A stretch of 64,000 nt of DNA from Bacteroidota bacterium (lineage in GTDB: Bacteria > Bacteroidota > Bacteroidia > Bacteroidales > VadinHA17). This document shows positions 3,785 through 62,997 of the stretch, piece after piece; the stretch's first letter is position 1; each line of letters starts with the position of its first letter. Below the pieces are notes generated by a model. It made no database searches, had not been told where the DNA came from, and worked only from the letters and a program-made list of their open reading frames with translations. A program made the translations under genes and the position numbers. The stretch is from NCBI GenBank assembly GCA_022561875.1, contig JADFQJ010000003.1:56397-120396 (forward strand), read 5' to 3'.

Positions 3785-4888
3785 TTAATTTATCACGGTT
3801 GAATCTGTTGAGAAAGTAATGATCATTTGATTTATTTCAGCCGGGCTCCAGGGGTTAAGCCCTGTCATATCCATAAAGTCCTGTGTAAAACCTTCATCAT
3901 CAGGAATATCACCTGCGTTTGAAACAAATCCCTGTTCGCCTGTAAAATATGCTGGTCCGACAGCCCTGGCTAAAAATATCTTTTTGATATCAGAAAGTGT
4001 TGCCTGGTCGACATTAGCGTAAACAATATCAATCTCTTCGGTCAAAACCTTATCAACACTGAAATCAACCCAGATATTTGACATGTCTGTTTGTAGTATT
4101 GTTGGCAATGCAATTCTTGCAATGGCAATATCATTTGGCACATCGTTCCTTGCCCGGAAACAGAAACACCTTCCGCTATTGTGATTATCATTAAGAAGCG
4201 TCATGTACGGATGGGTGGAATTACCATACAAAGAAATAATATCACCATTTTTCCCTGCAAAAAACTTAAGATTACTCATATATTGTCTTGATGTTGAGTC
4301 CATTTTGGTAATGCTTACGATCATAGTTTTGTCATAATCAGGATCGTTTTCACTATACTCAATCTGTATCATTGCATTTGGATTTCTGGTTGTACTGAAA
4401 TCAAATGCCCTGGGCTGAAGTATTGTAATAACTTCCAATGGATTTGTGTTCCAGAACAACTGGAATGCTGTTCCCAATTCTTCATCACTGACAGTAAGAC
4501 AAAAATCCCAGGTTGTATCATTAATACTGATATTTTCTTTAACCACAACATCTTTGTTTTTTCCGTCATAAATACTCTCATACGGAAAGGTTGTTGAATG
4601 GGTAATGTTATGCTTTTTAAGACTTAGCATCATATCCTGAACTAAATCAGCCGACAACTCCCCTAAATATATAAAATTCCTCAAATGCATGTATATATCT
4701 TCACCTGTTAACGCATCAACACCCAAATAAGCACTTTTATTTGTGTTAGGAGCCGGAAAGCTAATTGCATCAGATATCCCAATGGTGATATTATCAGGTA
4801 GAGAATCGCCCGATTCGTTTTTGCCACACCCCGAAAACACTATTGCTGACAGGGTAATGATTACCGTAATAACTTTAATGTTTTTCAT
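3785..4888 (-). CDS. hypothetical lipoprotein
   Basis: 367 aa with a lipoprotein signal peptide and lipobox (LSAIVFSGC-GKNE). I recognise no family. Confidence 0.6.
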   Translation of the reverse strand: MKNIKVITVIITLSAIVFSGCGKNESGDSLPDNITIGISDAISFPAPNTNKSAYLGVDALTGEDIYMHLRNFIYLGELSADLVQDMMLSLKKHNITHSTTFPYESIYDGKNKDVVVKENISINDTTWDFCLTVSDEELGTAFQLFWNTNPLEVITILQPRAFDFSTTRNPNAMIQIEYSENDPDYDKTMIVSITKMDSTSRQYMSNLKFFAGKNGDIISLYGNSTHPYMTLLNDNHNSGRCFCFRARNDVPNDIAIARIALPTILQTDMSNIWVDFSVDKVLTEEIDIVYANVDQATLSDIKKIFLARAVGPAYFTGEQGFVSNAGDIPDDEGFTQDFMDMTGLNPWSPAEINQMIITFSTDSTVIN

Positions 4889-5001: not shown

Positions 5002-5057
5002 CAGTTGGCAATAGGCAATAGGCAGTTGGCAACAAAGAGCAAAGAGCGTAGAGTACA
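5002..5057. repeat. heptad word array (8 x 7 nt)
   Basis: CAGTTGG CAATAGG CAATAGG CAGTTGG CAACAAA GAGCAAA GAGCGTA GAGTACA. An 8-nt array ACTAATCA x2 follows at about 5100-5126. Confidence 0.85.
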
Positions 5058-5286
5058 GGGCTATGGGTTCCATTATGGCATAGCTTACCTGTAACATAAA
5101 ACTAATCAACTAATCAACCAATTAACGATGAAGAAGTTGGTACTCAGCAGTCTTCAGTCTGTAAAAAACAGAGATCATTGATCTAAGAAAAATCCTATGA
5201 TAAAGTCGGACTCCGACTGTGATTTAGCAAGTGGGTAGCAGTTCGGATTCCGGCTTAGTGGTTTAATACCCTGGTGAAGGTTTTAG

Positions 5287-5770
5287 CTAAAAATCAGCAA
5301 GTATCAATCCTATAGAAACAGGATATAACTCAGGACCTTGACCGGTTTCAAACATTTGTGTTAAATTGTAGGTTGCAAATATTTTTAATGCCCTGTATCC
5401 AATTCTTGCAGTTACACCATACCTGAGAGGAGAAAGATTAAAATCATCATTGATTTTATCTTTTTGTTTGCTCCCATCTTCTTTGTAGACAACCTTGGTG
5501 TGAGAACCTATTTTCAAACCACCAATAACTCCGCCACTTATATGGATTCTTTTATGTCCTGATACAGGTATCTGGAACTCAAGCAATAAAGGCACAGTTA
5601 AATAGGTGGTTGCAAGCTTTGTTTTTTCGATGTATGTGCCGGCATCATATTCCAGTGACACAATTTCCCTTGTAACAGGATCCTTAATAATACTGTTATC
5701 CCCGTCAAACCTATAATTATTGAATTCCAATCCCATACCGGTTACCAGACCAACTTTGTCGGTTCCAATA
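5287..5770 (-). pseudogene. C-terminal part of an outer-membrane beta-barrel (porin-family) protein lacking its own N-terminus and signal peptide
   Basis: Alternating beta-strand pattern (LTVPLLLEFQIP, ISGGVIGGLKIGS, LRYGVTARIGYRALKIFATYNLTQMF). The ORF (5287-5823) has no signal peptide, and its first ~18 codons overlap the sigma-factor frame. Confidence 0.55.
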
Positions 5771-6151
5771 TGAATATCCTTCATAATCCCGTAACATAAT
5801 AACTGAGCGCTGATCTGCCCCAAGTTGATTCAAAGCGTGATGTAATATTTCATTCAGCCCGTCGTAATGTTCTGAATTTGAATATTCTTCATGAATGATC
5901 TCGTCAAAATTAGTCTGCCGCTTGTCTTTTCTGATCATATCGATCATTGTATGATAAGCTGCCGAAAACAGGTAAGATTTGGCTTTGCTGTACGAAATAT
6001 CCGCTGCTTTCACCCACATTTTCTCAAAAGTTTCCTGCACAACATCTTTTGCCTTGTCCACATCCCTGAGGTTTTTTAAGATGAAACGATATACACCGTC
6101 AGAGAAATCCTCAACACATCTGTTATACTCTTCCGTGGTCATTGATATCAA
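5717..6151 (-). pseudogene. ECF-type RNA polymerase sigma-70 factor, truncated inside region 4
   Basis: Region 2 (DVVQETFEKMWVKA...AAYHTMIDMIRKDKR) and region 4.1 (QRSVIMLRDYEGYSY) are present. The 4.2 recognition helix is missing; the frame then reads WNRQSWSGNRYGIGIQ-stop across beta-barrel coding sequence. Confidence 0.6.
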
Positions 6152-6253
6152 AATTCAGTTTTAGGACGATATTAAGTAGTAAAAAGTTACAGACAAACTA
6201 TTAATGTTTTTTACATTTACCTTTCAATGTAACTATTCAGTGCCAAATGAAAG

Positions 6254-6416
6254 AAATGAGTAAATGAGTAAATGATAAAATGTTTAAAGTGACTAAAATT
6301 GAAGAATCGTGAGTCGTGAATCGTGAAGAGAAAAGAATTCAAGATCCAATGTTAAGTTTTTCTTAACTTCTTCTTTCTTCCCAACTTTAGGCACTCATAA
6401 CTTTAGGCACTTTAAG
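6254..6416. repeat. mosaic repeat patch: AAATGAGT octads, ATCGTGA heptads, AACTTTAGGCAC 16-mers
   Basis: Octads at 6254-6282, heptads ATCGTGA GTCGTGA ATCGTGA at 6306-6326, and AACTTTAGGCACTCAT AACTTTAGGCACTTTA at 6384-6415. The 25-mer at 6294-6318 recurs inverted at 21236-21260. Confidence 0.85.
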
Positions 6417-6491
6417 TACTGTATATGAAGCTTTTATAAGGAAAAGATAAAAATAATTATAAAAATACTTGCAATCGTGTACTAAATAACT

Positions 6492-7157: not shown

Positions 7158-7175
7158 CTAGAAAATCAATAAAAC

Positions 7176-10554: not shown

Positions 10555-10610
10555 GAATAGATGACGACGGTAATTTGTTTCTTAATGTTAAATCGTATAA
10601 ATATAAAATC

Positions 10611-11828
10611 ATGATCTTTTCAATTTCCTGGAGAAATATCTGGAGAAATAAAGTCCGGAGCCTGGTGATCATCACTGCCGTGGCTTTGGGAATTTGTGCC
10701 GGAGTGTTTTCAACTGCCTTTATGAAGGGGATGATGGATCAGCGGATCCGGCAGGCTATTTCAACCGAGATCTCACATATACAAATCCACCGGCAAGGCT
10801 ACAGGCAAGAAAGCAGTTTGCAGCTTTACATGAACGAATCGCCAGCTGTGGTGGAACAAATAAAAAAAATAAATCATGTCAAAGGAGCGAGTCAGAGGAT
10901 CATTATTCAATCGATGGTCTCTTCTGCTGAAACCTCATCAGGTGTAAAGATCGCAGGGATCTATCCCGAAAACGAACAAAATGTCACTAACCTGAGTACG
11001 AAAATTGTTGAAGGAAAATATTTCGAGGGTGTACCCAGAAACCCGGTTGTTATTGGCAAGAAGCTGGCTGAAAAGCTCAATGTAAAGTTGCATTCGAAAA
11101 TTGTCATCACACTGCAGGATATGGATAAAAACATAACGGCAGGTGCATTCCGGATAGCAGGGCTTTTTGAAACACCAAATTCAACCTACGACAAAATGAG
11201 TGTATTCGTCAGGTATAATGATCTCTCACGGTTATTGAATCTGCCGGAAGGTGCAAGCCACGAAATTGCAATACTTGTTGACGATAACGAGATGGTATCC
11301 TCTGTTCAGGACGAGGTGAAAGCTTTAGTTGCTGATTATGAAGTCCTGAACTGGAAGGAAATTAGTCCTGAAATGGGTTACATAACTGAAGTTATGGACA
11401 TGTATATGTATATTTTTATTATAATCATCTTACTTGCTTTGTTGTTTGGTATCATTAATACAATGCTAATGGTAATACTCGAAAGAGTAAAAGAGATTGG
11501 AATGCTTCTGGCTGTGGGGATGAATAAATTAAGAGTGTTTACAATGATCGTGGTTGAAACCGTGCAGTTATCCCTGGTGGGGGGTGTTGCAGGGATGGTC
11601 GTCGGTAGTTTGATATCGAAATATTTTGAAACTCATGCAATAAACCTTTCCAGATGGGCAAAAGGATATTCCCAGCTCGGGTATGACACTATGGTTTATT
11701 GCAATCTTGAATCCGAAATGATTATAAATATTACCATCCTTGTGATTCTTACAGGAATCATAGCTGCCATTTATCCGGCATATAAAGCATTGAAATATGA
11801 TCCGGCAGAGGCATTACGAATGGAATAG
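10611..11828 (+). CDS. ABC transporter permease, FtsX/LolE type (copy 3, divergent)
   Basis: ISWRNIWRNKVRS..., ERVKEIGMLLAVGM. Start set at ATG 10611 (the ORF-track start 10575 is a TTG). Confidence 0.85.
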   Translation: MIFSISWRNIWRNKVRSLVIITAVALGICAGVFSTAFMKGMMDQRIRQAISTEISHIQIHRQGYRQESSLQLYMNESPAVVEQIKKINHVKGASQRIIIQSMVSSAETSSGVKIAGIYPENEQNVTNLSTKIVEGKYFEGVPRNPVVIGKKLAEKLNVKLHSKIVITLQDMDKNITAGAFRIAGLFETPNSTYDKMSVFVRYNDLSRLLNLPEGASHEIAILVDDNEMVSSVQDEVKALVADYEVLNWKEISPEMGYITEVMDMYMYIFIIIILLALLFGIINTMLMVILERVKEIGMLLAVGMNKLRVFTMIVVETVQLSLVGGVAGMVVGSLISKYFETHAINLSRWAKGYSQLGYDTMVYCNLESEMIINITILVILTGIIAAIYPAYKALKYDPAEALRME

Positions 11829-11843: not shown

Positions 11844-11983
11844 CAGTCGGCAGTCAACAGTCGGCAATTTGCAATCGGTAGTCAACAACTGGTAGTAATA
11901 AAAAGAAAACAATTATAAAATAATAAAAAACGGGAAAAATCACATTAAAATTACACAGTCTTCTGTTTGCCGACTGCTGACTG
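11844..11983. repeat. heptad array (CAGTCGG type) with an inverted partner about 100 nt away
   Basis: 11844-11899 reads CAGTCGG CAGTCAA CAGTCGG CAATTTG CAATCGG TAGTCAA CAACTGG TAGTAAT. TTGCCGACTGCTGACTG at 11967-11983 is the reverse complement of CAGTCAACAGTCGGCAA with one mismatch. Confidence 0.85.
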
Positions 11984-12083
11984 AAGATTGCAGACTTAAA
12001 AATACAAAGTATAATAAGATTAGCCATTTTAGGCATTACAAACTTACGACACTGAATATTTATAAAATTTTAAACACAACATT

Positions 12084-12767: not shown

Positions 12768-12795
12768 TGTCATGTTAACATAATAATATTGTAAA

Positions 12796-12970
12796 GTTGG
12801 CAAAATGCAAAAGGCAGTTGGCAAATTGGAAAGGATAGTTGGTAAAATGCAAAAGGCAGTTGGCAAATTGGAAGGATAGTTGGCAAGAATGCAAAGAGCA
12901 GTTGGCAAATTGGAGGCAAATTGCGGAAAACAGTTGGCAAAATTGCAATTGGTAAAAGGTAAAATAAATT
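12796..12970. repeat. 42/41-bp tandem repeat (about 3 units plus a degenerate tail), each unit built from six NNNNGCA-type heptads
   Basis: Unit 1 at 12796-12837 is GTTGGCAAAATGCAAAAGGCAGTTGGCAAATTGGAAAGGATA. Unit 2 is 12838-12878. Unit 3 starts at 12879 and decays towards 12970. Confidence 0.9.
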
Positions 12971-14582: not shown

Positions 14583-16220
14583 ATGATTTACGATTATATT
14601 GTAGTCGGGTCCGGTTTTGGGGGAAGTGTTGCATCATTGAGACTGGCTGAAAAAGGATATTCGGTATTAACCATTGAGAAAGGTAAGAGATACCGGAGTG
14701 AAGACTTTCCTGAGACAAACTGGAATTTACCAAAACATCTCTGGTATCCACGGATAGGGATGTTCGGCATTCTGAAACTATCCTTTTTTTCGGAAGCAAG
14801 CATACTCAGTGGTGTGGGAGTTGGAGGTGGTAGTCTTGTTTATGCCAATACCCTGGTTAAGCCCCCTGATGAATTTTTTCAAAACCCTTCATGGTCAGAA
14901 TTTAAAGATTGGAAAAAAATTCTTGAGCCATATTATGAAACGGCAGGTTTTATGCTGGGAAGAAAAAAATATGATAAACTGAACTATGAAGATGAGATTT
15001 TAAAAGAAGTAGCAAAGGATTTTAACAGGGAAGACACTTTTGAAGCTGTTCATGTTGGAGTATATTTTGGTGATAAGGAAAATGAAATTGATCCCTATTT
15101 TAACGGCTTGGGTCCGAAAAGAAAAGGGTGTACCGAATGTGCGGGCTGTATGGTTGGATGCAGGGATAATGCAAAAAATTCTCTTGATAAAAACTATCTC
15201 TATTTTGCTGAGAAAATGGGTGTTTTTATTCAGGCTGAAACGAAGGTTGAAAAAATTATTTGTAAGGATAATTTATATCATGTTTTCACTTATTCAGGCG
15301 CCTCTTTATTTAAGAAAAAACCAACAGTTTACAGATCAAAAGGACTAGTTATTTCAGGTGGAACACTTGGTACCTTAGACTTGTTGTTAAAACAGAAGTA
15401 CAAGTATAAAACCATGCCGGCTATTTCTGAAAAACTCGGATATGAATTACGTACAAATTCACAGACATTATGTGCTGTTTCAGGGGCAAAAGAAAAACTA
15501 AATAATGGAATTGCAATTACATCGGTTTTTAATCCCGATTCTCATACCCATGTTGAAATAGTCAAATATCCCGATAAATCGAATGCAATGAAATGGTTTT
15601 TTACCCTTTCAGCAGAAGGGAATACAAACCCCCTGATAAGAGTTTTCAAATTATTTTATAAAACACTTACACACCCTCTGCAATTCATTAAAACTGTTTT
15701 TAATTTCAACTGGTCTGCAAACCTTATAGTATTTCTGGTTATGCAAACAATCGATAATTCTATGCAGATGATATGGACCGGAAATGTATTTGGCGGGAGA
15801 ATTAAAATAAGAAACAGGGGAGAGAAAAAGGTTCCTGCATATATTGCCCAGGGACAGAAAGTGATGGAAAATTACGCAAAAAAAGTGCATGGAATTCCAC
15901 AGAATATAATATTAGAGATATTTTTAAACCGACCTACCACAGCACATATTATTGGAGGATGTCCTATGTCAGACTCAGCCGAATCGGGGGTGGTTAACGA
16001 AAAATTTGAAGTTCATGGCTATGACAACATGTATATTATTGATGGTTCGGTAATTCAGGGAAACCTTGGTATGAATCCCGCGTATACAATCACCGCGATA
16101 GCTGAGTATGCCATGGATCAAATTCCCGGAAAGCCGGGGAACAGGACAATTTCAGTACTGGAACAAATGAAAATAATCAGTCGGCAGTCACGGGAAAAAA
16201 GGCAAAAGCTTGCCACGTGA
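14583..16220 (+). CDS. GMC family FAD-dependent oxidoreductase (cholesterol/long-chain-alcohol oxidase-like)
   Basis: N-terminal FAD fold DYIVVGSGFGGSVASLRLAEKGYSVLTIEKG and a C-terminal GMC motif region (HIIGGCPM..., NMYIIDGSVIQGNLGMNP). The last ~15 codons read into a repeat patch. Confidence 0.8.
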   Translation: MIYDYIVVGSGFGGSVASLRLAEKGYSVLTIEKGKRYRSEDFPETNWNLPKHLWYPRIGMFGILKLSFFSEASILSGVGVGGGSLVYANTLVKPPDEFFQNPSWSEFKDWKKILEPYYETAGFMLGRKKYDKLNYEDEILKEVAKDFNREDTFEAVHVGVYFGDKENEIDPYFNGLGPKRKGCTECAGCMVGCRDNAKNSLDKNYLYFAEKMGVFIQAETKVEKIICKDNLYHVFTYSGASLFKKKPTVYRSKGLVISGGTLGTLDLLLKQKYKYKTMPAISEKLGYELRTNSQTLCAVSGAKEKLNNGIAITSVFNPDSHTHVEIVKYPDKSNAMKWFFTLSAEGNTNPLIRVFKLFYKTLTHPLQFIKTVFNFNWSANLIVFLVMQTIDNSMQMIWTGNVFGGRIKIRNRGEKKVPAYIAQGQKVMENYAKKVHGIPQNIILEIFLNRPTTAHIIGGCPMSDSAESGVVNEKFEVHGYDNMYIIDGSVIQGNLGMNPAYTITAIAEYAMDQIPGKPGNRTISVLEQMKIISRQSREKRQKLAT

Positions 16221-16279
16221 AATGCGACGAAGGAGCATATTTCACTGTGGGCAGTCGGCAGTCCACAGTCGGCAAAAAT
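16176..16279. repeat. CAGTCGG-type heptad arrays flanking a 7-bp hairpin, overlapping the 3' end of the GMC oxidoreductase ORF
   Basis: CAGTCGGCAGTCAC at 16178-16191, hairpin GTGAAAT...ATTTCAC at 16217-16245, and CAGTCGG CAGTCCA CAGTCGG CAAAAAT at 16252-16279. Confidence 0.8.
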
Positions 16280-21180: not shown

Positions 21181-21314
21181 GAATGAGTTCAAGGTTCAAA
21201 GTTCAAGGGTGAAACAGGGTTCTGGGAGCTGGTTTCACGACTCACGATTCTTCAATTTTAGACATTTTAGGCATTTCTTAATTTTAGGCACTTCAAACTT
21301 TAGGCATTTCTTCT
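21181..21314. repeat. mosaic repeat patch (GTTCAAG words, inverted CGTGAGTCGTG module, TTTTAGGCA 16/17-mers)
   Basis: GAGTTCAAGGTTCAAAGTTCAAGG. CACGACTCACGATTCTTCAATTTTA at 21236-21260. ATTTTAGGCATTTCTTA ATTTTAGGCACTTCAA ACTTTAGGCATTTC. Confidence 0.85.
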
Positions 21315-21327: not shown

Positions 21328-24300
21328 ATGAAGAACTTCAAAATATATAACAGAACCCTGGGATGGATAACTTTTCTGATAGCCCTGGTTGTTTACCTTA
21401 TGACTATTGAACCAACCACCAGCTTATGGGATTGTGGTGAATTCATTGCTTCGGCTTTTAAACTTGAAGTTGGTCATCCGCCGGGAGCCCCACTTCATAT
21501 GATCATGGCGCGCGTGGCATCTTTGTTTGCCGGCAGTAATGTAGAGAATGCCGCAAAGATGATAAATGCACTGTCGGCCTTCGCAAGCGCCTTTACGATC
21601 ATGTTCCTTTTCTGGACGATAACACATTTGGCTGTTAAAATATTTAACAGGGATAAGGAAATAACCAATGGCAATATGATTGCTATCCTTGCAAGCGGTC
21701 TGGTAGGGGCGCTTGCCTATACTTTTTCCGATACATTCTGGTTCTCAGCTGTTGAAGGAGAAGTATATGGAACTTCTTCACTTTTTACTGCTGTTGTATT
21801 CTGGGCAATTCTGAAATGGGAGAATGTTGCTGATGAGAAATATGCTGACAGATGGCTTATACTCATTGCTTATTTAATGGGATTGTCTATAGGTGTGCAC
21901 CTGCTCAACCTGCTTGCTATTCCGGCAATTGTCCTGGTATATTATTTCAGGAAACACAGTTTCAGTGTAAAAGGATTCACTGTTGTCCTGATGGTTTCTG
22001 TTGTGTTGATAGCTATTATTATGTGGGGTATCATCCCTGGAATTTGTAAAACCTCTTCACAGTTTGAGCTTTTATTTGTAAATACTTTCGGCTTATTTTA
22101 TAATTCAGGGGTTCTGGTACATTTTATATTTTTGGTTTTTTCACTTATTCTTGCCATTTACTATACCCATTTCAGGAAAAAATCAGAAATTGAAACTGCC
22201 GTTTTTTCCATCATTGCAATAACCCTGTTAGGTGTTCCGTTTCTTGGCAGTACGTTTTTCGTAAATCTGGTGTTATGGCTTATTGTATCAGGGGTTGTAT
22301 ATTACCTGGCACATACTAATAAAGTAATACTGAATACCATTTTAACAAGTGCTGCCGTCATTTTGATTGGATACTCCTCTTTTGCAATGATCGTTATCAG
22401 GTCGCAGGCTGACCCTCCGATAGATGAAAACAATCCGGAAAATGTCTTTTCATTGCTTTACTACCTCAACAGGGAACAGTATGGTTCCAGTCCCTTGTTG
22501 TATGGTCAGTATTATAATGCTCCAACTGAAGCAATAGAGAATGGTAAACCCACTTACAGGCCGAGGAACGGTAAATATGAAATAATAAAATACTCTCCGG
22601 AAGTTATTTATGATGATCGTTTTATGACTTTTTTCCCACGAATGTGGAGTCCTCAATCTGACCATAAAGTCCAGTACAGGAAATGGGGGAAGATAAAAGG
22701 GACGCCTGTGAAAATCACCGATGGATCAGGGGAAACGAAAACTATCTATAAACCAACCTTTGTTGAAAATATCAGGTTTTTTATCAATTACCAGGTCGGA
22801 CATATGTACTTGCGTTATTTTATGTGGAATTTCTCCGGACGGCAAAATGATATTCAGGGACATGGAGGTCCGTTAAAAGGGAACTGGCTTACCGGGATCG
22901 ATTTCCTGGATGAGATACGCCTGGGTCCACAGGATGATCTGCCTGAAAGTATGGATACCCCATCCAGGAATGAATATTTGATGTTACCCTTACTGCTTGG
23001 TTTGATGGGATTTTTATACCAGCTTCAGCGGGATAAGAAAAACTCTTTGGTCACATCGCTTCTGTTCCTGATGACAGGTTTAGCTATCGTCATTTATCTC
23101 AACCAATATCCAAATCAGCCACGGGAAAGGGATTATGCATATGCCGGTTCTTTCTATGTTTTTACCATTTGGATTGGGCTGGGTGTTCTGGCTTTTTATG
23201 ATATCCTGAAAAAATATATTCCCGGCAGCGCCGGAGCCATAATAACCGGTTTGGCATGGTTAATACTGGTTCCGGGAATATTGGCACGTGAAAACTGGGA
23301 TGACCACGACCGTTCAGGAAAATATGTTGCAAGAGATATTGCATATAACTATCTGAATTCATGTGCCCCAAATGCCATTCTGTTTACAAATGGCGATAAT
23401 GACACTTTTCCCCTGTGGTATGCGCAGGAAGTTGAAGGGATCCGCACCGATGTTCGTGTCGTGAACATGATGTTGTACAATACGGATTGGTATATCGATC
23501 AGATGAAAAGGAAAGCATATGAGTCTGAAGCACTTCCTCTCTCATTGCCACTGAAAAAATATCAGGATGGTACAAATAACCAGGTATTTATTATTGAACG
23601 GATCGATGAGTTTACAGAAATCGGTAAGATCATTGATTTTGTGAGGAATGATAGCAGAGGAACAAAAATAAGAACCAGGGATAACGAGTGGATCGATTAT
23701 ATTCCGACAAAAAATTTCCGTATTCCTGTTAATAAAGAGAGAGTTCTTTCGAATGGCACTGTTGCTCAGGAAGATGCGGATAAAATTGTACCGCATATTG
23801 ATATAACTATTAACAAAAACTATATTTTGAAAAGCCAGTTGATGCTGATTGATTTTCTTGCTCAGAACGACTGGGATCGCCCTGTGTATTTTGTAACCGG
23901 AGGAACCGAAGATGCCATTGGGTTAGAGGACTATTTTCAGCTTGAAGGATTTGCATACCGCCTGGTTCCAATAAAAACAGAAAAAAGGGGCATAGTTGAT
24001 TATGGTCGTATAAATCAGGATGTTATGTATGATAACCTGATGAATAAATTCAAGTGGGGCAGAATAAACGAACCGGATGTTTACCTGGATTACTATTCAC
24101 GCAGGACATTATTAGTTATGAAGGTGAGGAATAATTTTGTGCGTCTTGCAAAATCCTTAATTTCAGAAGGGAAAAAGGACTCTGCAGTTGTAGTTCTTGA
24201 TCGTTGTGTTGAGCTGATACCAAACGAAAAATTACCCATTGGCATATTTACCACCGGATTGGTTGAAGGTTATTATTTGGCGGGAGCAAAAGAGAAAGCT

Positions 24301-24528
24301 GATAGTCTTGCAGAGGTTTTGTTTTCCATAGTCACTGAAGATCTTGAATTTTATTATGCAATGGGAGTTGAATTTCAGGATGCAATTAGATATGAAAAAA
24401 GTTTATCATTGCAAATTCTTCAGGACCTTCTCAGATTCACAGGCAAATATGAAAAAGGAGAATTACAGAAAAAAGTTGAGCAGGAGTTTGGGAAATATTA
24501 CCAGCTTTACCAGGGTGTTGGAGAATAG
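21328..24528 (+). CDS. DUF2723 domain-containing membrane protein (glycosyltransferase-like, TMEM260-like)
   Basis: 1066 aa. N-terminal signature TTSLWDCGEFIASAFKLEVGHPPGAPL, about 10 or more TM helices, large C-terminal soluble part. Confidence 0.75.
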   Translation: MKNFKIYNRTLGWITFLIALVVYLMTIEPTTSLWDCGEFIASAFKLEVGHPPGAPLHMIMARVASLFAGSNVENAAKMINALSAFASAFTIMFLFWTITHLAVKIFNRDKEITNGNMIAILASGLVGALAYTFSDTFWFSAVEGEVYGTSSLFTAVVFWAILKWENVADEKYADRWLILIAYLMGLSIGVHLLNLLAIPAIVLVYYFRKHSFSVKGFTVVLMVSVVLIAIIMWGIIPGICKTSSQFELLFVNTFGLFYNSGVLVHFIFLVFSLILAIYYTHFRKKSEIETAVFSIIAITLLGVPFLGSTFFVNLVLWLIVSGVVYYLAHTNKVILNTILTSAAVILIGYSSFAMIVIRSQADPPIDENNPENVFSLLYYLNREQYGSSPLLYGQYYNAPTEAIENGKPTYRPRNGKYEIIKYSPEVIYDDRFMTFFPRMWSPQSDHKVQYRKWGKIKGTPVKITDGSGETKTIYKPTFVENIRFFINYQVGHMYLRYFMWNFSGRQNDIQGHGGPLKGNWLTGIDFLDEIRLGPQDDLPESMDTPSRNEYLMLPLLLGLMGFLYQLQRDKKNSLVTSLLFLMTGLAIVIYLNQYPNQPRERDYAYAGSFYVFTIWIGLGVLAFYDILKKYIPGSAGAIITGLAWLILVPGILARENWDDHDRSGKYVARDIAYNYLNSCAPNAILFTNGDNDTFPLWYAQEVEGIRTDVRVVNMMLYNTDWYIDQMKRKAYESEALPLSLPLKKYQDGTNNQVFIIERIDEFTEIGKIIDFVRNDSRGTKIRTRDNEWIDYIPTKNFRIPVNKERVLSNGTVAQEDADKIVPHIDITINKNYILKSQLMLIDFLAQNDWDRPVYFVTGGTEDAIGLEDYFQLEGFAYRLVPIKTEKRGIVDYGRINQDVMYDNLMNKFKWGRINEPDVYLDYYSRRTLLVMKVRNNFVRLAKSLISEGKKDSAVVVLDRCVELIPNEKLPIGIFTTGLVEGYYLAGAKEKADSLAEVLFSIVTEDLEFYYAMGVEFQDAIRYEKSLSLQILQDLLRFTGKYEKGELQKKVEQEFGKYYQLYQGVGE

Positions 24529-33285: not shown

Positions 33286-33540
33286 GTAATTATTCAGTGC
33301 CTAAATAAAAAAGTGCCTTAAGTTTGAAATAGCTAAAATGCCTAAAGTTATAAATAAATAGCGCCTAAAATTTAAAATGACTAAATGACTAAATGCTAAA
33401 ATGTCCAGAATGTTACGAGTTACGAGTTACGAGGTTCGGGTATTTGAACCTTTAACTTGTCTTCCTCCCTACTATTTACTACTTACTTCCTACTTCTTTC
33501 TTCACTCACCTCTCACCGCTTCTTCCTCTCCTTCCTCACC
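33286..33540. repeat. mosaic repeat patch (TGCCTAAA words, AAATGACT octads, GTTACGA heptads, TTTGAACCTTTAACT module, CT-rich tail)
   Basis: Octads at 33375-33403. GTTACGA x3 plus GGTTCGG at 33412-33439. The pyrimidine-rich stretch runs up to the efp stop codon. Confidence 0.85.
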
Positions 33541-34107
33541 TTATTTTGCTCTTTCGGAGTATGATTTATCCCTTGTGTCGATTTTTATCTTGTTACCGGT
33601 ATTTACAAACAGTGGCACCATGATGGTTGCTCCTGTTTCTACTTCCGCCGGTTTGAGTGAACTGGTTGAAGAAGTATCTCCTTTAACTCCCGGTTCGGTA
33701 TATGTTACTTCCAGTATAATGAAGGAGGGTAACTCACAGGATATAGGTGTTTCAGTTTCATTGTGATACACGATCTCAACCTTCTGGCTTTCTTTAAGCA
33801 GATCCGGGCTGACTATGAGATCTTTCTGAATTGCAACCTGTTCAAATGTTTCTGTATGCATGAAATGATATCCCAGATCATCCTTATAAAGGAATTGGTA
33901 AGGTCGTCTTTCAATTCTTGCCACAGTAACCTTATGGCCTGAAGTAAAAGTATTTTCAATTACTTTACCGGTAGTGATACTTTTAAGTTTTGTTCTTACG
34001 AATGCAGGTCCTTTCCCCGGTTTGACATGCTGGAACTGGACAATAGAATATAGATCATTGTTGAATTCGATACAAAGCCCGTTTCTGAAATCTGAGGTTG
34101 TTGCCAT
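33541..34107 (-). CDS. efp: elongation factor P
   Basis: MATTSDFRNGLCIEF...VKPGKGPAFVRTKLKS. 188 aa. Confidence 0.95.
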   Translation of the reverse strand: MATTSDFRNGLCIEFNNDLYSIVQFQHVKPGKGPAFVRTKLKSITTGKVIENTFTSGHKVTVARIERRPYQFLYKDDLGYHFMHTETFEQVAIQKDLIVSPDLLKESQKVEIVYHNETETPISCELPSFIILEVTYTEPGVKGDTSSTSSLKPAEVETGATIMVPLFVNTGNKIKIDTRDKSYSERAK

Positions 34108-35061: not shown

Positions 35062-35179
35062 CTAACGTTTTATTACTAAACTATTCAAAAAGCATACCTT
35101 AATGCTTTTAGCAAATATAGATAACAGTTCATTACATTCATAACTACTCAATAAAAGAAATGATTAAATGAGTGAATGA

Positions 35180-35268
35180 CTTCAGAATTCATGTTTCATA
35201 TTTCGGTTACAACTTATGCATATCCTTAAAGCATAAAAAGTATAAGGATTTTGCGAACGAAGTGAAGC
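35180..35268 (+). repeat. interspersed ~90-120 bp repeat, copy 1
   Basis: ...CGGTTACAACTTATGCATATCCTTAAAGCATAAAAAGTATAAGGATTTTGCGAACGAAGTGAAGC, near-identical to the reverse complement of 57700-57821. Confidence 0.85.
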
Positions 35269-35347
35269 CTCTTCTCTTCATCTCTCAGTCGCCCCCTCGC
35301 CCACTCTCTTCGTCTCTCTTCGACCCTCTTCGACCCTTTGACCTCTC

Positions 35348-36058
35348 TTACCTGTATATATTCTTTTTAGGTATTGTAGCAATAAAATCTTTAAGGTAGA
35401 ATGGTTCGAAGTAAGCTGAGTCCTCAAAGTTTTTTTCTTTATATGCTCTGTTCGACAACGGGATCATGAAACGGGCGGATGGAAGTACACCATCTAAAAA
35501 AAAAGCGTTTCGGTGACTGAGAACGGGTTTACATTTTTCAGCCCCGGTACCAAAAAAAACCACTGGTTTTTCAGAAAGTATGTCTGAGTAGGTTTCTTTA
35601 TCAATGATATTTGCTGATACGGGGCGGGTGATTTCGTTTTTATCGTTGTAGAATGCAGAAAAAACCTCCATTCTTCGGGCATCGATCATGGGACAGTACC
35701 ATGTTTTTTCTTTAACAGACGGCATACGACAGGGATTCTTCGGGTGTGAGATTGCCCCTAAGGCAAGCGCCTGCAGTGTGCTTACTGAGATAAGGGGGAT
35801 ATCTGCACCATATGCAATTCCTTTGGCGGTTGAAACGCCTATACGGAGCCCTGTATATGATCCGGGACCTTTGCTTACTGAAACGGCATCAAGCTGAGTG
35901 GGTTTAAGATTGTTATTTTTAAGAATATCATCTATAAAAACAGCTAACATGGAGGCATGAGTTTTTTCCTGATAGCTCTCACGGATATCAATCAATTGTA
36001 ACCCTGAAGAAAGGGCAACCGAGCACACATGAGTTGCCGTCTCGATGTTTAAAATCAT
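35348..36058 (-). CDS. tsaB: tRNA t6A37 threonylcarbamoyl transfer protein TsaB
   Basis: MILNIETATHVCSVAL..., GPGSYTGLRIGVSTAKG. Confidence 0.9.
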   Translation of the reverse strand: MILNIETATHVCSVALSSGLQLIDIRESYQEKTHASMLAVFIDDILKNNNLKPTQLDAVSVSKGPGSYTGLRIGVSTAKGIAYGADIPLISVSTLQALALGAISHPKNPCRMPSVKEKTWYCPMIDARRMEVFSAFYNDKNEITRPVSANIIDKETYSDILSEKPVVFFGTGAEKCKPVLSHRNAFFLDGVLPSARFMIPLSNRAYKEKNFEDSAYFEPFYLKDFIATIPKKNIYR

Positions 36059-38852: not shown

Positions 38853-39575
38853 ATGAGAGAGAAGACGGTTTATGTTGATAGAATTGGCAATGTATTATTC
38901 ATTAAAAAGCCCCAAGTTAAGAATATAAACATCAGGTTGTATGCCGATGGCAGGGTAAAAGTATCTTTGCCGGTTTATTCATCCTATTCACAGGCCATAA
39001 AAGTTGTTAGAAAAAAGATTCCATGGATACTGAAACAAAAAAAAACACTCAGAGAACAGAATCAAGAACAACAGATTGTTATAAGTAGTGAAACCAGCCT
39101 TCCTTTCTTAAAACATAAGCTAAAATTCGTTCCGGTTAAAAACACCCGGATGAAAATGGAGATATATAATGGGACACTTAAAATTTTATACCCGCAGGGG
39201 ATAGATATTATGGATAAACAAATTCAGGAGTTTATCCGTAAAGGAGTAACGGAAGTAATGAGAATAGAAGCCAAAGATTTTCTTCCGCGAAGAGTAGAGA
39301 CACTTGCCCGTAAATATGGATTTAATTACAGGAGGGTGTTTATTAAAAATGCAAAAAGCTTGTGGGGAAGTTGTTCATCAAAGAAAAATATTAACCTGAA
39401 CCTCAATTTAATCCGCCTTCCGGAAAGGTTACAGGATTATATTATTCTTCATGAGCTGGCACATACTGTGCATCGAAACCATGGACCGCAATTCTGGGGT
39501 CTTCTTGATAGCTACTTTGGGAATGCACGTTCATTGACTAAGGAGTTGAAGAGTTACAAGATTAATGAATTATGA
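38853..39575 (+). CDS. YgjP-like (DUF45 / M48-related) metal-dependent hydrolase
   Basis: C-terminal WGSCSSKKNINLN...ILHELAHTVHRNHGPQFW motif. Confidence 0.8.
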   Translation: MREKTVYVDRIGNVLFIKKPQVKNINIRLYADGRVKVSLPVYSSYSQAIKVVRKKIPWILKQKKTLREQNQEQQIVISSETSLPFLKHKLKFVPVKNTRMKMEIYNGTLKILYPQGIDIMDKQIQEFIRKGVTEVMRIEAKDFLPRRVETLARKYGFNYRRVFIKNAKSLWGSCSSKKNINLNLNLIRLPERLQDYIILHELAHTVHRNHGPQFWGLLDSYFGNARSLTKELKSYKINEL

Positions 39576-39582
39576 AGGGAAG

Positions 39583-39655
39583 AGTGAGTCGTGAGTCGTG
39601 AAGAAGAAAGAAGCAGGGAGTCCACCAAAGAAATAATTTAGACATTTAGCACCTT
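39583..39655. repeat. repeat patch (GTGAGTC heptads, purine-rich words, TTTAGaCA/TTTAGCAC words)
   Basis: GTGAGTC GTGAGTC GTGAAGA AGAAAGA AGCAGGG ... TTTAGACATTTAGCACC. Confidence 0.7.
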
Positions 39656-41318: not shown

Positions 41319-41372
41319 GGCTTATTTTATAAAACTGTGCAAAATTACAAAAAAAAATATAACTCCGTAACT

Positions 41373-41410
41373 AAAGTGAAGAAATGAAGAAATGAGTAAA
41401 TGAGTAAATA
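41373..41410. repeat. 8-nt periodic array (AAATGAGT class)
   Basis: AAAGTGAA GAAATGAA GAAATGAG TAAATGAG TAAATAG. Confidence 0.8.
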
Positions 41411-41573
41411 GGTTATGAGGCGAAGAAGTGTTGCAGTGTTGAAAGGTTTATTTGTTGATGAGTTTATTGTAAGAACGGATATAATTTATTACATATTTTA
41501 ATTCGAAAACCTTTTTTAACTTTATTGTGATAAACCGCTATCATGGACGATGTTAATTTTGTTTTGCAGGTAA

Positions 41574-44404: not shown

Positions 44405-44512
44405 TTATTGAGAAAAAGTTTAAAGTGAGCTAAAGTTAAGAGTGCCTAAAGTTGAGAAGAAGGTTTAACTTTAGGCATTTTAGGCACTTTTAACTTTAGG
44501 CACTTTTTTATC
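44405..44512. repeat. TTTAGGCAC word patch containing a perfect 11-bp hairpin
   Basis: TGCCTAAAGTT at 44443-44453 pairs with AACTTTAGGCA at 44467-44477. TTTAGGCA words continue to about 44507. Confidence 0.85.
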
Positions 44513-47041: not shown

Positions 47042-47200
47042 GTTGCCAGTTACTGGTTGCTGGTTGCTTGTTTGTTGAATATCAGATAGTTAGAAAAATG
47101 GTTAATCTTTGAATTAAACATACAATGATTTTATAAACAATTGAATTATAGTATATTAACCAGTAACTAGTAACGAGCAACTAGCAACTTGAATTAATTA
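47042..47200. repeat. inverted pair of heptad arrays around an AT-rich spacer, plus a 35-nt module shared with 58945-58980
   Basis: GTTGCCA GTTACTG GTTGCTG GTTGCTT GTTTGTT at 47042-47076. CAGTAAC TAGTAAC GAGCAAC TAGCAAC at 47161-47188. The module at 47165-47200 matches 58945-58980 with 2 mismatches over the 35 nt after the first base. Confidence 0.85.
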
Positions 47201-47295: not shown

Positions 47296-47374
47296 AAAAT
47301 AAGTGCCTAAAGCGCCTAAAGTTTAAAGTGCTTAAAATTCAAAAGGCATAGAATGCTAAAATGCTAAAATATCT
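47296..47374. repeat. TGCCTAAA words and GAATGCTA/AAATGCTA octads
   Basis: AATGCCTAATAAAATAAGTGCCTAAAGCGCCTAAAGTTTAAAGTGCTTAAAA...GAATGCTA AAATGCTA AAATATCT. Confidence 0.8.
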
Positions 47375-49965: not shown

Positions 49966-51372
49966 ATGACTAATAGTAGAGAAAAAGAATTAGTAAAAAG
50001 AATTGCAAAACTTGCCAAACAAAACCGGGAGTTGGAGGAACTGGTAAGGAAACTGCAAAGGAAAAACGAAAAACTTATCCGGGATAATGAAAAAATAAAA
50101 GCTGTCCTGGAAAATTTATCACCTGGTAAGCTTGATAAAGAATTATATATAGAACAGAAACCCAGATCTCTTAAATTTGAGATGGCAACAGTTTTATTTG
50201 CTGATATTCATGGGTTCTCGAAAATTTCGGATAAGGTTGATTCTGAAGCATTGATGGATGAACTTGATGAAATATTTTTCGCCTTCAATGCTATTGTAAA
50301 AAAATATAATATTGAAAAAATAAAAACCATTGGTGATACATATATGTGTTCCGGTGGTATACCCGTGAAGAATATTACCAACCCTGTAGATGTCGTTATG
50401 GCTGCCATTGAAATGCAAAGTTTTTTACGGGCATTTGATAAAAATGGGGAGGAAAAATCAGGTAAATTCTGGGAACTGAAACTCGGAATCCATACAGGTC
50501 CGGTAACAGCACAATCATCAGGAAAAAAGAAAGTTACTTATGACATTAAGGGTGATACGGTAAATACTGCAAGCCGGATTGAATCAGTTGTTGAAGTCGG
50601 GGAGATAATAATATCGGTGATGACATATGAACTTGTAAAAGAATTTTTTGTTTGTGAATATTATGGAAAATTGCCGGTCAAATACAAGGATGACCTGGAA
50701 ATGTATATTATAGAAGGTATTAAACCGGAGCTTTCGGTTGACGGGAAAGGTTTATTGCCAAATAAAACATTTGATATCAGATTCGGGCTGATACAATTTA
50801 CAGATATGCAGGAGGTTATTCTTGACAAACTGGAAGAAGAACTTCCGGGAAAACTGTATTATCATAATGTTAAACATACTGTCGACATAGTTACTGAAGT
50901 GGAACTGATTGGTTGGGGTGAAGGCATAAGTGACGAAGAGATCCTGTTGATAAAAACAGCCGGACTTTTTCATGATGTAGGGCATGTTGTTCAATATGCT
51001 GATCATGAATATCATGGCACATTGATTGCCCGGGAGATGCTCCCAAAATATAACTATTCTGAAAAACAGATCGATAGAATATGTGACGTTATTATGTCAA
51101 CAAAACTTCCACCTAAGCCAAAAGATCTGCTCCAGTCAATTATATGTGATGCGGATCTTGATTACCTGGGAAGGAGCGATTTTATTCCGGTTTCAAACAC
51201 ATTGTTTAAAGAGCTTAAAGAACAGAATATGATTGGAACACTTAATGACTGGAATAAATTACAGGTGAAATTCATTACCGGGCATCAGTATTTTACCAAA
51301 ACGGCAAGAAACCTGAGGGAAGTAAATAAACAGAAGCAAATTGAGAGGATCTCAAGTTTGATAGAAGATTAA
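49966..51372 (+). CDS. class III adenylate cyclase fused to a C-terminal HD-domain phosphohydrolase (soluble, coiled-coil N-terminus)
   Basis: Cyclase motifs VLFADIHGFS, IKTIGDTYMC and YDIKGDTVNTASRIES. HD motifs HNVKHTVDIV, GLFHDVGH and CDADLDYLG. Confidence 0.8.
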   Translation: MTNSREKELVKRIAKLAKQNRELEELVRKLQRKNEKLIRDNEKIKAVLENLSPGKLDKELYIEQKPRSLKFEMATVLFADIHGFSKISDKVDSEALMDELDEIFFAFNAIVKKYNIEKIKTIGDTYMCSGGIPVKNITNPVDVVMAAIEMQSFLRAFDKNGEEKSGKFWELKLGIHTGPVTAQSSGKKKVTYDIKGDTVNTASRIESVVEVGEIIISVMTYELVKEFFVCEYYGKLPVKYKDDLEMYIIEGIKPELSVDGKGLLPNKTFDIRFGLIQFTDMQEVILDKLEEELPGKLYYHNVKHTVDIVTEVELIGWGEGISDEEILLIKTAGLFHDVGHVVQYADHEYHGTLIAREMLPKYNYSEKQIDRICDVIMSTKLPPKPKDLLQSIICDADLDYLGRSDFIPVSNTLFKELKEQNMIGTLNDWNKLQVKFITGHQYFTKTARNLREVNKQKQIERISSLIED

Positions 51373-51375: not shown

Positions 51376-51439
51376 GTTGGCAATTGGCAAAAAGCAGTTG
51401 GCAAATAATAGTCCACTGTTAATATCACATTTGCCAACT
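51376..51439. repeat. GTTGGCA heptad array forming a perfect 11-bp hairpin between convergent genes (possible bidirectional terminator)
   Basis: GTTGGCA ATTGGCA AAAAGCA GTTGGCA AATAATA. AGTTGGCAAAT at 51396-51406 pairs with ATTTGCCAACT at 51429-51439. Confidence 0.8.
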
Positions 51440-51477
51440 ATTCGTCAACCGTCAAAATCAAGTTAACACGGCGCTGG

Positions 51478-54414: not shown

Positions 54415-54522
54415 AAATAAAAAGGCAAAAGTATAATGTCGAAAGCTCACAGGATGTACATCTGCCATTTGCCATCATTTGGCTCTCAGACTTTATGCTT
54501 ATTATTCCAACTACTATTACAT

Positions 54523-54606
54523 GTTACGGGTTACGAGTTCAGGTCTTTGAACCTTTAACTCTTCTCTTCCCTTTTGCCATTTGCCATCTGCCTTTTGCCT
54601 TACTTT
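54523..54606. repeat. GTTACGG/GTTACGA heptads, TTTGAACCTTTAACT module and TTTGCCA heptads
   Basis: The module order matches 33412-33470. TTTGCCA TTTGCCA TCTGCCT TTTGCCT at 54573-54600. Confidence 0.85.
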
Positions 54607-57422: not shown

Positions 57423-57699
57423 TGCCCGTCTATAAAGTCCGAAAGTTTATATAAATATTAAAAATCACAAATGACAAGCACCAAAACACAAATAAATCTC
57501 AATGACCCAAATCACAATATTCAAAGCTGTTTCGGTCATTTGGTAATTGATATTTGGAATTTATTTGTTATTTGTTTTTTGTTATTTGGTGCTTTGTTTA
57601 CGAAAATGCTTGACTTTATGGACAGACACTATTTAGACTGCAAGAAAGGTGAGTAGTTGAGTAAGAGGAGTAGAGAAGCAAATGAGTAAATGATAAAAT

Positions 57700-62994: not shown

Positions 62995-62997
62995 GAA

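Follow-up and report, generated by a model that had tools for sequence, protein, structure and literature searches.

We analysed tandem word arrays in the intergenic DNA of a 64 kb stretch from an uncultured member of the Bacteroidota (contig JADFQJ010000003.1 of assembly GCA_022561875.1, positions 56,397 to 120,396; GC 36.9%), and we refer to this whole stretch as the window. The window encodes a PorZ/type IX secretion system (T9SS) protein with a Por_Secre_tail domain, which marks it as Bacteroidota. In a species-level collection, the nearest relatives of its glycoside hydrolase family 3 (GH3) protein came from uncultured Bacteroidales/Bacteroidota metagenome-assembled genomes (MAGs) at 85-89% amino-acid identity, and Ancylomarina, Prolixibacter and similar genera carried the protein at 60-66% identity. 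An earlier note on this DNA had described arrays with a strict 7-nt period, beginning with one at 5002..5057 on the + strand that reads as eight heptads (CAGTTGG CAATAGG CAATAGG CAGTTGG CAACAAA GAGCAAA GAGCGTA GAGTACA). The analysis showed that such arrays are abundant in the gaps between genes, that they gain and lose whole units in place, and that those adjoining stop codons are predominantly G-rich and C-poor on the sense strand of the gene.

Intergenic DNA was taken as the complement of open reading frames (ORFs) of at least 100 aa, which gave 10,068 bp (15.7% of the window) and left 53,932 bp as coding DNA. A strict patch was defined as at least 12 of 14 matches at a given lag, and the expectation was obtained from 100 dinucleotide shuffles. 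The intergenic match frequency was 0.328 at lag 7 (0.288 in the shuffles, z = 9.4) and 0.314 at lag 8 (0.288 in the shuffles, z = 5.7). Strict patches numbered 13 at lag 7, with 0.15 expected and a maximum of 2 in 100 shuffles, and six at lag 8, with 0.21 expected. No strict patch at lag 7 or lag 8 was found in the 53,932 bp of coding DNA. The enrichment over shuffled controls on which the earlier note had made its claim depend was thus present in the intergenic DNA of the window. Tandem Repeats Finder (TRF), which was used to list tandem arrays, returned 64 short arrays, 48 of them inside the intergenic 15.7%. Of these rows, 17 had period 7 and one further array had period 21/42, all of them head-to-tail 7-nt direct repeats when imperfect copies are allowed. 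Period-7-type arrays were present in 15 of the 35 intergenic regions, and arrays of either period-7-type or period-8/16-type in 19 of the 35, so the claim that they occupy most operon boundaries should read about half. The listed sites themselves read as described, since every register was verified in the sequence and TRF recovered most of them.

The same note had separated a class of 8-nt words (AAATGAGT and its variants), said to lie always in + orientation, from a class of ~16-nt units (TTTAGGCAY). The common orientation of the 8-nt copies was confirmed, but the separation was not: the two classes are one family read on opposite strands. The AAATGAGT 8-mers and TTTAGGCAY units adjoin each other at 33296-33403 and 47296-47373, and at 6275-6424 and 44430-44499 they make up the opposing arms of inverted repeats (pairs I3 and I5). 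TTTAGGCAY was found in 13 copies versus 1.35 expected. Four or five of the six + strand 8-mer arrays lie upstream of minus-strand genes (or a tRNA), and it may be the neighbouring gene, not the chromosome strand, that sets their orientation.

To compare strains, 42 contigs of the same species (97-100% identical) were found by exact-protein look-up among ENA assemblies and Logan unitigs, and these come from samples and pipelines other than those of the window. Contigs of this set that span an array carry the same array, and orthologous arrays were present in four separately assembled sister MAGs. Short-read unitigs often break within arrays, which could be taken as a sign of artefact, and many Logan unitigs do stop inside arrays or hairpin loops, as expected of repeats. 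However, the identical recurrence of the arrays in independent ENA and Logan assemblies answers the concern over mis-assembly that the earlier note had raised, and the 13 patches found against 0.15 expected are far beyond the shuffle maximum. Chance low-complexity sequence and assembly artefact were therefore both excluded as sources of the arrays.

The arrays and array-bearing regions of the window are as follows.

5002..5057, + strand: the eight heptads given above (TRF and reading), lying upstream of the minus-strand gene 3785..4888 at 113 nt from its start; downstream of the gene 5287..5823 and before this array come two hairpins of terminator type with T-runs, read by eye.
5100..5126, + strand: 8-nt array of AACTAATC in 3.4 copies (TRF); the sense (minus) strand reads GTTGATTA.
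6245..6430, divergent gap: composite region with AAATGAGT 8-mers at 6254-6299, GAATCGT heptads at 6304-6327 and two TTTAGGCAC units at 6384-6415; the outer parts are inverted copies (I3) and the fold is weak (z = -0.1 on the + strand, -2.3 on the - strand).
11844..11990, + strand: CAGTCGG-type heptads at 11844-11899, the first of them 16 nt beyond the stop of 10575..11828, and their inverted counterpart TTGCCGACTGCTGACTG at 11967-11990; the pair makes a long hairpin (I4), which from the gene order appears to sit within an ATP-binding cassette (ABC)-transporter operon.
12795..12970, + strand: 42-bp unit of six NNNNGCA heptads, 2.9 copies plus a degenerate tail (TRF period 42, 91% matches), starting 29 nt after the stop of an ABC ATPase gene; five Logan contigs end inside this array.
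16250..16279, + strand: heptads CAGTCGG CAGTCCA CAGTCGG in sense orientation, 27 nt after the stop of 14583..16220.
21185..21314, + strand: GTTCAAG heptads at 21187-21208, a reverse-complement GAATCGTGAGTCGTGAA word at about 21237-21253, and TTTAGGCAY units at 21262-21314, which are spaced ~16 nt apart and end 14 nt before the start of 21328..24528.
33296..33540, gap after efp (33541..34107, minus strand; TRF and reading): in sense-strand order ~100 nt of purine-rich heptads, an AGGTTC..GAACCT hairpin, (TCGTAAC)3, (AGTCATTT)n, TTTAGGCAY units and the next gene.
35158..35349 (TRF): AAATGAGT-type 8-mers at 35158-35179 and CTCTTCGACC 10-mers at 35306-35349, the latter G-rich on the sense strand of 35348..36058 and adjoining its stop codon.
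39579..39604, + strand: GTGAGTC heptads in sense orientation, G-rich, 4 nt after the stop of 38853..39575.
41372..41415, + strand: GAAATGAA/GTAAATGA 8-mers, 54 nt upstream of tRNA-Gln (minus strand).
44415..44507: near-perfect hairpin (I5) with TTTAGGCAC-unit arms at 44430-44450 and 44479-44499, 95% complementary.
47042..47189: GTTGCTG heptads at 47042-47076 and inverted CAGTAAC/GAGCAAC at 47157-47189, together a hairpin of ~150 nt.
47296..47373: AGTGCCTAAAG units (inverted TTTAGGCAC) grading into AATGCTAA 8-mers, ending 15 nt from the stop codon of the GH3 gene.
51376..51445, + strand: GTTGGCA heptads beginning 4 nt beyond the stop of 49966..51372, which pair with the short inverted word ATTTGCCAAC to make a hairpin; the gap is convergent.
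54515..54602: GTTACGR heptads at 54523-54543 and TTTGCCA heptads at 54570-54601, the latter reading GGCAAAN on the sense strand and starting 9 nt after the stop of 54611..55447.
57420..57631: hairpin element resembling a MITE (miniature inverted-repeat transposable element), with 20-nt terminal inverted repeats; its arms at 57468-57502 and 57554-57594 are GTTATTT-type heptad arrays.
57650..57701, + strand: TGAGTAAA/AAATGAGT 8-mers (TRF and reading).
60138..60162, + strand: AAAAGGC heptads, ~9 nt after a putative small ORF (roughly 59896-60128, read by eye).
62997..63034, + strand: GTTACGR in three copies followed by TAGTCAA in two, in sense orientation, 2 nt after the stop of 61939..62994.

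To examine position and strand, a stop-adjacent array was defined as one within 25 nt of a stop codon and was oriented to the sense strand of its gene. The unselected set consisted of the window and loci L001-L080, which were not chosen by word, and a fished set consisted of loci matching (CAGTYGG)3. Over all loci, arrays lay within 25 nt of a stop ~2.4 times as often as within 25 nt of a start. In the unselected loci, 18 stop-adjacent arrays had more G than C on the sense strand and 2 had less (p = 4e-4); in the fished loci the counts were 39 and 7 among the matches listed (p = 1.8e-6). Array-free 35-nt 3' flanks from the window and L001-L080, used as the control, gave 280 with more G and 310 with less. 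The composition of the unselected stop-adjacent arrays was 7.8% C and 29.4% G, compared with ~16% each in the control flanks. Arrays nearest a start codon (within 150 nt) showed no such polarity, with more G than C in 18 and less in 15 (p = 0.73). Among the matches listed, 15 (CAGTYGG)n loci start within 16 nt after a same-strand stop and 1 has an opposite-strand upstream ORF. The stop-adjacent arrays of minus-strand genes in the window (33468-33540, 35306-35349 and 54570-54601) were G-rich on the minus strand, which indicates that the polarity follows transcription and not the chromosome strand.

The stop codon beside the fished arrays was TAG in 27 of 56 cases among the matches listed, 11 of them in register with the heptad CAG, a count that is confounded by spurious ORFs in GC-rich contigs; the pattern is suggestive of arrays that abut or overrun ORF ends. 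In a Bacteroidetes MAG (L058, 18303-18395) a stop is flanked by 93 nt of almost nothing but C on the sense strand, which may be an assembly artefact.

We next consider how the arrays change. The aligned stretches of the 42 same-species contigs contained four indels relative to the window, and three of these were whole units. Contig L212 has a 7-nt deletion at 5007 that is exactly one CAATAGG unit of the array at 5002..5057, with the remaining ~420 nt identical. Contig L236 has a 7-nt insertion of one TGAGAGG unit (sense strand) at 33510, about 30 nt after the efp stop, and L233 has two TGAGAGG units (14 nt) inserted at that position, so that three alleles with 0, 1 and 2 extra units occur there. 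The fourth indel, in L088, removes 11 nt from an A-run that borders the array at 11844. The earlier note had argued for one generating mechanism behind many unrelated words of equal period, and the whole-unit changes of -7, +7 and +14 nt agree with this argument; many words sharing one period point to a single mechanism. The arrays come into being and vary in situ through slipped-strand mispairing, or through a comparable process that duplicates and deletes unit by unit.

Contig L088, which is 97% identical to the window, was also found to be without the entire ~190-nt array of GTTGGCA/AAATGCA heptads at about 12796-12990. Its empty-site junction reads GTAAAGTTG-AAAAAATCGAAATT-ATGG, and the window at the same site reads GTAAAGTTG-(GCAAAATGCAAAAGGCAGTTGGCAAA ... 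CAAATTG)-CAAAAACAGGAAAT-ATGG. A TTG(G)CAAAA motif is present at both junctions, and the units of the array are variations on that motif, which argues for growth in place from a GTTG(G)CAAAA seed and not for insertion. A whole array can thus grow from a short local seed, and the proposal that all arrays are transposed MITEs was ruled out at 12796 by this empty site.

Between sister species, coding DNA was 80-88% identical and intergenic regions did not align. The gap between the dNK and GH3 genes ranged from 30 to 434 bp across six species and contained differing heptad words, as follows.

Window: 375 bp, with GTTGCTG and CAGTAAC heptads and TTTAGGCAC units.
L001: 434 bp, with AAATTAC and with CCGACTG in two copies.
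L002: 195 bp, with CCGACTG in four copies.
L003: 170 bp, with CCGACTG in two copies.
L004: 30 bp, no array.
L005: 156 bp, with AAATTAC and with CCGACTG in three copies.

The L004 orthologue of the gap at 51376 was likewise about 20 nt or less with no array, and TTTAGGCAY was essentially confined to the species of the window. In the comparison of orthologous gaps that the earlier note had proposed, the turnover of words, copy numbers and gap length from one sister species to another was complete. Taken with the restriction of TTTAGGCAY to one species, the differing words at the same gap mean that every lineage has its own fast-changing vocabulary on a common 7-nt beat.

The same period was the preferred one in the class. 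By the same criterion, sister loci, where period 7 was also the mode, contained 14 lag-7 patches in a total of 63 kb. The other Bacteroidia loci span 1.19 Mb, and in them patches numbered 6, 11, 23, 62, 29, 25, 13 and 10 for periods 4, 5, 6, 7, 8, 9, 10 and 11, respectively, a spectrum with a single peak at 7 where the shuffled expectation was about 4-7 per period (about 5 for period 7). The 62 period-7 patches were concentrated in 25 of 75 loci, and array density was 0.20 per kb in the window versus 0.05 per kb elsewhere in the class. Loci rich in arrays included those of Tangfeifania diversioriginum (L049) and Pedobacter miscanthi (L077). When metagenomes were scanned for (CAGTYGG)3, at least 120 contigs (L091-L210) were found to carry (CAGTYGG)n, some with arrays of up to 18 units, and the contigs examined had a GC content of 33-71%. 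As a separate observation, arrays of TTTAGGG, the plant-type telomere heptad, lie directly after a stop in two Pedobacter genomes (L077 4971-5018, Pedobacter miscanthi; L065 4508-4528).

Some arrays are paired. A fold test on 19 regions showed five that folded clearly better than shuffles (z <= -4, + strand), and these were as follows.

11838-11995: E = -41.4 versus a shuffle mean of -22.1, z = -6.3.
44410-44512: z = -6.1 on the + strand and -7.1 on the - strand.
47035-47195: z = -5.7.
51373-51450: z = -5.3.
57420-57631 (I2, I12): z = -4.2 on the + strand and -5.4 on the - strand.

The region of the array at 5002 showed no significant fold (z = -0.9), and the other regions outside these five had far weaker folds or none, so the idea that all arrays are hairpins was rejected. 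A homologue of the element at 57420-57631 was found at another locus in the sister species L001; no target duplication was identified at 57420-57631 itself, where the terminal inverted repeats are present. A dispersed segment of ~110 nt at 11958-12066 (containing AAGATTGCAGACTTAAAAATACAAAGTATAATAAGATTAGCCATTTTAGGCATTACAAACTTACGACACTGAA) has copies in L001 (83-170, 9572-9679 and 11531-11601) and L003 (8816-8927). In both the window and L003 it is placed immediately upstream of gene starts, and it is a candidate for a mobile promoter or leader module. Within the window, 33419-33457 is about 90% identical to 54523-54560. With at least two hairpin elements having copies at other loci, some words also spread by mobility. 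A ~75-nt dispersed repeat with TTTTGCGAACGAAGTGAAGC was also noted at 57739-57812 and 35195-35268 (93% identical, inverted orientation), with a third, shorter partial copy at 63146-63193; candidates for it are a small RNA, a MITE or an element of the repetitive extragenic palindromic (REP) type.

Several further features were recorded beside the arrays. The ORF of an extracytoplasmic function (ECF)-type sigma factor (5717..6151) and that of an outer-membrane beta-barrel protein (5287..5823) overlap by 107 nt when called with TTG starts; the overlap is probably a start-codon artefact, because other pipelines call the second gene shorter (149-165 aa). Directly after the array at 12796 lies a short ORF of 69 aa (12994-13204) of the 23S rRNA intervening-sequence/four-helix-bundle family (PF05635), which adjoins the next gene, looks truncated, and is present in strains with and without the array. 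Behind the efp stop, ~100 nt of sequence have only one C and include several AAGGAG/GGAGAGG runs similar to Shine-Dalgarno sequences (33505-33540 region), which is odd, as Bacteroidota are largely without Shine-Dalgarno pairing. The adenylate/guanylate-cyclase-domain genes 49966..51372 and 55533..57422 are paralogues with stretches of 78-88% nucleotide identity (50182-50976 and 56232-57032), and both are retained in sister species.

Scans for known signals returned little. An Rfam scan of the whole window found three tRNAs only, and the array regions had no family match at the gathering score. Over positions 1-20000 of the window, a sigma-70 promoter scan gave 75 hits versus 70.8 in shuffled sequence and an intrinsic-terminator scan gave 20 versus 14.1, both near expectation and uninformative for Bacteroidota, and a trinucleotide-at-period scan was uninformative. 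A resemblance of TTGGCA..TGCA to sigma-54 promoters was rejected by eye, as the GG-GC spacing is 7, 8, 14 or 15 nt and the -24/-12 elements of sigma-54 promoters have a GG-GC offset of 12 nt. A canonical G-quadruplex motif (G3+N1-7 x4) occurred nowhere in the window. Clustered regularly interspaced short palindromic repeats (CRISPR), with repeats of 23-50 nt set between unique spacers of like length, do not describe the arrays, whose units of 7-16 nt run head to tail with no spacers (TRF).

We compared the arrays with repeat systems already on record. As cited in PMC4679880 and PMC4692102, Mrázek 2007 (PNAS 104:8472) found that in most genomes heptanucleotides are the commonest of the repeats with units of 5-11 nt, and proposed as a reason that the polymerase holds ~7 nt of DNA, which would favour slippage. 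The arrays of the window resemble those simple-sequence repeats (SSRs), as that survey is cited, in being tandem 7-nt units that are intergenic, over-represented and unstable in unit number, in a class scattered across phyla. They have the features of long heptanucleotide SSRs: tandem 7-nt units in at least three copies, enrichment in non-coding DNA, and unit instability between strains and species. Among the richest genomes named in those citations were Burkholderia, cyanobacteria, actinobacteria and Xanthomonas, in contrast to the uncultured Bacteroidales studied here with ~0.2 arrays per kb, and relative to the survey as cited the present case adds unit indels at the population level.

Rehm 2015 (PMC4692102) described heterogeneous heptads, GGGAATC in Xanthomonas and GGGGAYT in Nostoc, with some positions fixed and some free and usually 3-4, mostly four, units. 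The Xanthomonas heptamers show a stop-proximal sense-strand bias and frequent inverted pairs (70 to 75 per genome), the Nostoc repeats prefer the non-coding strand, repeat length varies widely between close species, and most repeats are transcribed. The arrays of the window resemble these repeats in their heterogeneous heptads with fixed and free positions, their inverted pairs and their variation in length and sequence between close species. The arrays of the window and of other Bacteroidia share with the Xanthomonas repeats the G-rich sense strand near stops (18 versus 2, and 39 versus 7 among the fished matches listed). Unlike them, the words of the window lack G3-4 tracts, are AT-rich and coexist in large number; with neither such tracts nor a G-quadruplex motif present, an explanation by G-quadruplexes does not carry over.

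MacGregor 2015 (PMC4679880) reported TAACTGA and "other heptamer direct repeats" of 2-6 units in intergenic DNA of Beggiatoaceae, Cyanobacteria and five Bacteroidetes (Flexibacter litoralis, Paludibacter, Gramella, Aequorivita and Elizabethkingia), noted that close relatives are without repeats at the same loci, and proposed S1, Csp or CsrA-like binders. TAACTGA occurs in the window as seven single copies and never in tandem. Those repeats are forward and just upstream of starts, whereas arrays of the window type favour the stop side and lack polarity on the start side. The short tandemly repeated repetitive (STRR) sequences of Mazel 1990, as cited in PMC4692102, are three tandem heptanucleotides of Calothrix dispersed in intergenic DNA. 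By our own comparison of words, several of them share a CAGT core with CAGTYGG, but the STRR words CCCCAGT, TTGGTCA and CAACAGT had no tandem occurrence in the window in any rotation on either strand, and their hosts are heterocystous cyanobacteria rather than Bacteroidota with PorZ/T9SS genes and Bacteroidales MAGs as nearest relatives. A Nostoc preprint (10.1101/2022.06.06.494920) reported that deletion of heptamer repeats affects reporter expression and speculated on a binding protein.

None of the named word families (STRR1-3, TAACTGA, GGGAATC, GGGGAYT) was tandem in the window. The arrays belong to the known general class of heptanucleotide intergenic SSRs and not to any named family. The novelty implied in the earlier note did not survive this comparison, since intergenic over-representation of heptanucleotides is already on record (PMC4679880, PMC4692102, with STRR, GGGAATC and TAACTGA as instances). 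Its remark that no functional description exists held good, as the papers on heptamer repeats cited here offer speculation only (PMC4679880, PMC4692102, 10.1101/2022.06.06.494920). What is added here is modest: stop-codon polarity outside words of the G-quadruplex type, and unit indels at the population level.

Two other kinds of repeat overlap in part with the arrays. As in REP elements, bacterial interspersed mosaic elements (BIMEs), REP doublets forming hairpins (REPINs) and MITEs, there are extragenic hairpins, made by five array pairs just behind genes or within operons, and at least two elements are copied at other loci in sister species; unlike in these elements, tandem repeats make up the arms, most arrays have no partner and growth occurs in situ. 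As in the contingency-locus microsatellites of Haemophilus and Neisseria, there is slipped-strand mispairing with unit-number polymorphism within a population. Contingency loci, on the other hand, have 1-5-nt units in ORFs or promoter spacers and act by on/off switching, while in the window no strict patch lies in coding DNA and most located arrays are on the stop side.

The reading we favour, and consider somewhat better than an even bet, is that the arrays are heptanucleotide (less often octanucleotide) intergenic SSRs that are made by slippage, filtered by strand and for the most part tolerated as spacer DNA. Slippage or a similar unit-wise process makes the arrays in place from short seeds. 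The 7-nt mode may be a mutational optimum, for which the polymerase-footprint idea of Mrázek 2007 (as cited in PMC4679880 and PMC4692102) gives part of the basis. Looped-out units of at least 5 nt evade mismatch repair of the MutS type, a slipped primer must re-anneal over ~7 bp to be extended unsensed by the polymerase, and longer seeds are rarer by chance. A strand filter would then act on the arrays next to stops, which are certainly transcribed, and keep them almost only where the RNA is rich in G and poor in C. A Rho-loading (rut) sequence has the opposite character, and such a filter would avoid premature Rho termination and polarity in an untranslated stretch. Selection against Rho-loading sequence may lie behind the stop-side polarity. 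The tolerated orientation would matter where transcription certainly continues, that is behind stops and often inside operons, for example in the ABC-transporter cluster around 11844. Arrays upstream of promoters would be free in orientation, which fits the absent polarity on the start-codon side. Cyanobacteria are not known to have Rho. Paired arrays would probably act like REP-type hairpins in 3' or inter-cistronic RNA, and most single arrays would be tolerated spacer DNA and not dedicated signals.

Several points weigh against this reading. The population sample is small, with four indels in aligned stretches, and gene models throughout are ORF-based. We infer both the Rho-filter step and the reason for seven. 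With a C:G ratio of no more than 3:2 on its C-rich strand, (CAGTCGG)n would be a weak rut site. The symmetric rule of Rehm 2015, by which arrays upstream of starts should show mirror-image polarity, was not reproduced in our start-side counts. A constant GCA core recurs each 7 nt with the other positions variable (5002, 11844, 12796, 51376, 54573 and 60138), and this core, together with a small vocabulary re-used at several loci, could reflect protein recognition rather than drift. The CAGTCGG array kept after the GH3 stop in four species could reflect selection or concerted evolution.

The GCA core leads to a different view, in which the arrays are dedicated cis-elements bound by a single-strand binder with a footprint of ~7 nt (of the cold-shock/oligonucleotide-binding (OB)-fold, S1 or Bacteroidota RNA recognition motif (RRM) type), one unit per domain. 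Such a binder on 3' untranslated region (UTR) or leader RNA would tune mRNA stability, termination or translation, and slippage would only tune copy number. Many words with one period, the core recurring amid variable positions, the strong position and strand polarity beside stop codons and the recurrence of CAGTYGG in contigs of 33-71% GC all agree with it, the core and the cross-phylum word CAGTYGG being the main support; in addition, S1, Csp and CsrA-like binders have been proposed and Bacillus subtilis CspB binds heptamers (PMC4679880), and deletion of heptamer repeats in Nostoc is reported to affect reporter expression (bioRxiv 10.1101/2022.06.06.494920). We nevertheless consider it unlikely, since words are very diverse within the genome and between sister species (TTTAGGCAY being essentially a one-species word), strains and species can do without entire arrays, no gene class comes with a conserved array position, and no candidate protein was identified in this analysis. 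The hairpins could instead suggest that the arrays are primarily parts of mobile REP/REPIN/MITE-like elements, with heptads as the material of the arms and solitary arrays as decayed half-elements. This would account for the five array pairs with z = -4 to -7, the terminal inverted repeats of 57420-57631 and its homologue elsewhere in L001, the three copies of 11958-12066 in L001 and one in L003, and the ~90% identity of 33419-33457 to 54523-54560, and it has a parallel in the inverted pairs of Xanthomonas genomes (Rehm 2015, PMC4692102).

As an account of the arrays in general, however, mobility is improbable: most arrays are without an inverted partner or a significant fold, the L088 junction shows expansion of a local seed and not insertion with target duplication, the observed polymorphisms are single-unit changes rather than presence or absence of whole elements, and no transposase or REP-associated tyrosine transposase (RAYT) gene was noticed in the window, though no systematic search was made. 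A mobile REP/MITE nature holds for a subset only. It is also very unlikely that the polarity is a by-product of replication, in which an asymmetry of leading- and lagging-strand slippage combines with gene co-orientation and no selection acts on the transcript. The + strand is indeed the G-rich strand in about 18 of 23 window arrays (by inspection), but the arrays adjoining stops of minus-strand genes are G-rich on the minus strand, the 9:1 sense bias exceeds the product of gene-strand bias and a plausible replication bias (about 0.6 by our estimate), and array-free 3' flanks show no skew. Slippage in place with a strand filter remains the account that we prefer.

Heptanucleotide repeats have been noted in bacteria since 1990 and still have no accepted function in the papers cited here. 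The window offers a clear-cut natural case from a lineage with hardly any descriptions of them, and it catches the mutational process in action, with three of four indels among near-identical strains being whole units and an empty site showing the birth of an array. Because the arrays break short-read assemblies and are hypervariable, they affect the contiguity of MAGs and could serve as strain markers.

The strand rule holds in unselected Bacteroidia loci and, among the matches listed, in contigs fished with CAGTYGG at 33-71% GC. It makes function testable, by asking whether the polarity is imposed by Rho or by a single-strand-binding protein and whether it is lost in Rho-less phyla. A more far-reaching and doubtful proposal is that the stop-adjacent, G-rich and C-poor period-7 arrays are a selected and widely shared 3'-end module of Rho-containing bacteria, either an anti-rut spacer or a platform for a binder with a 7-nt footprint. 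If this is true, (CAGTYGG)n behind stops across that range of GC would represent convergent use or horizontal spread of a functional motif, and the module would set where untranslated RNA opens to termination or decay, with slippage as a built-in tuning knob.

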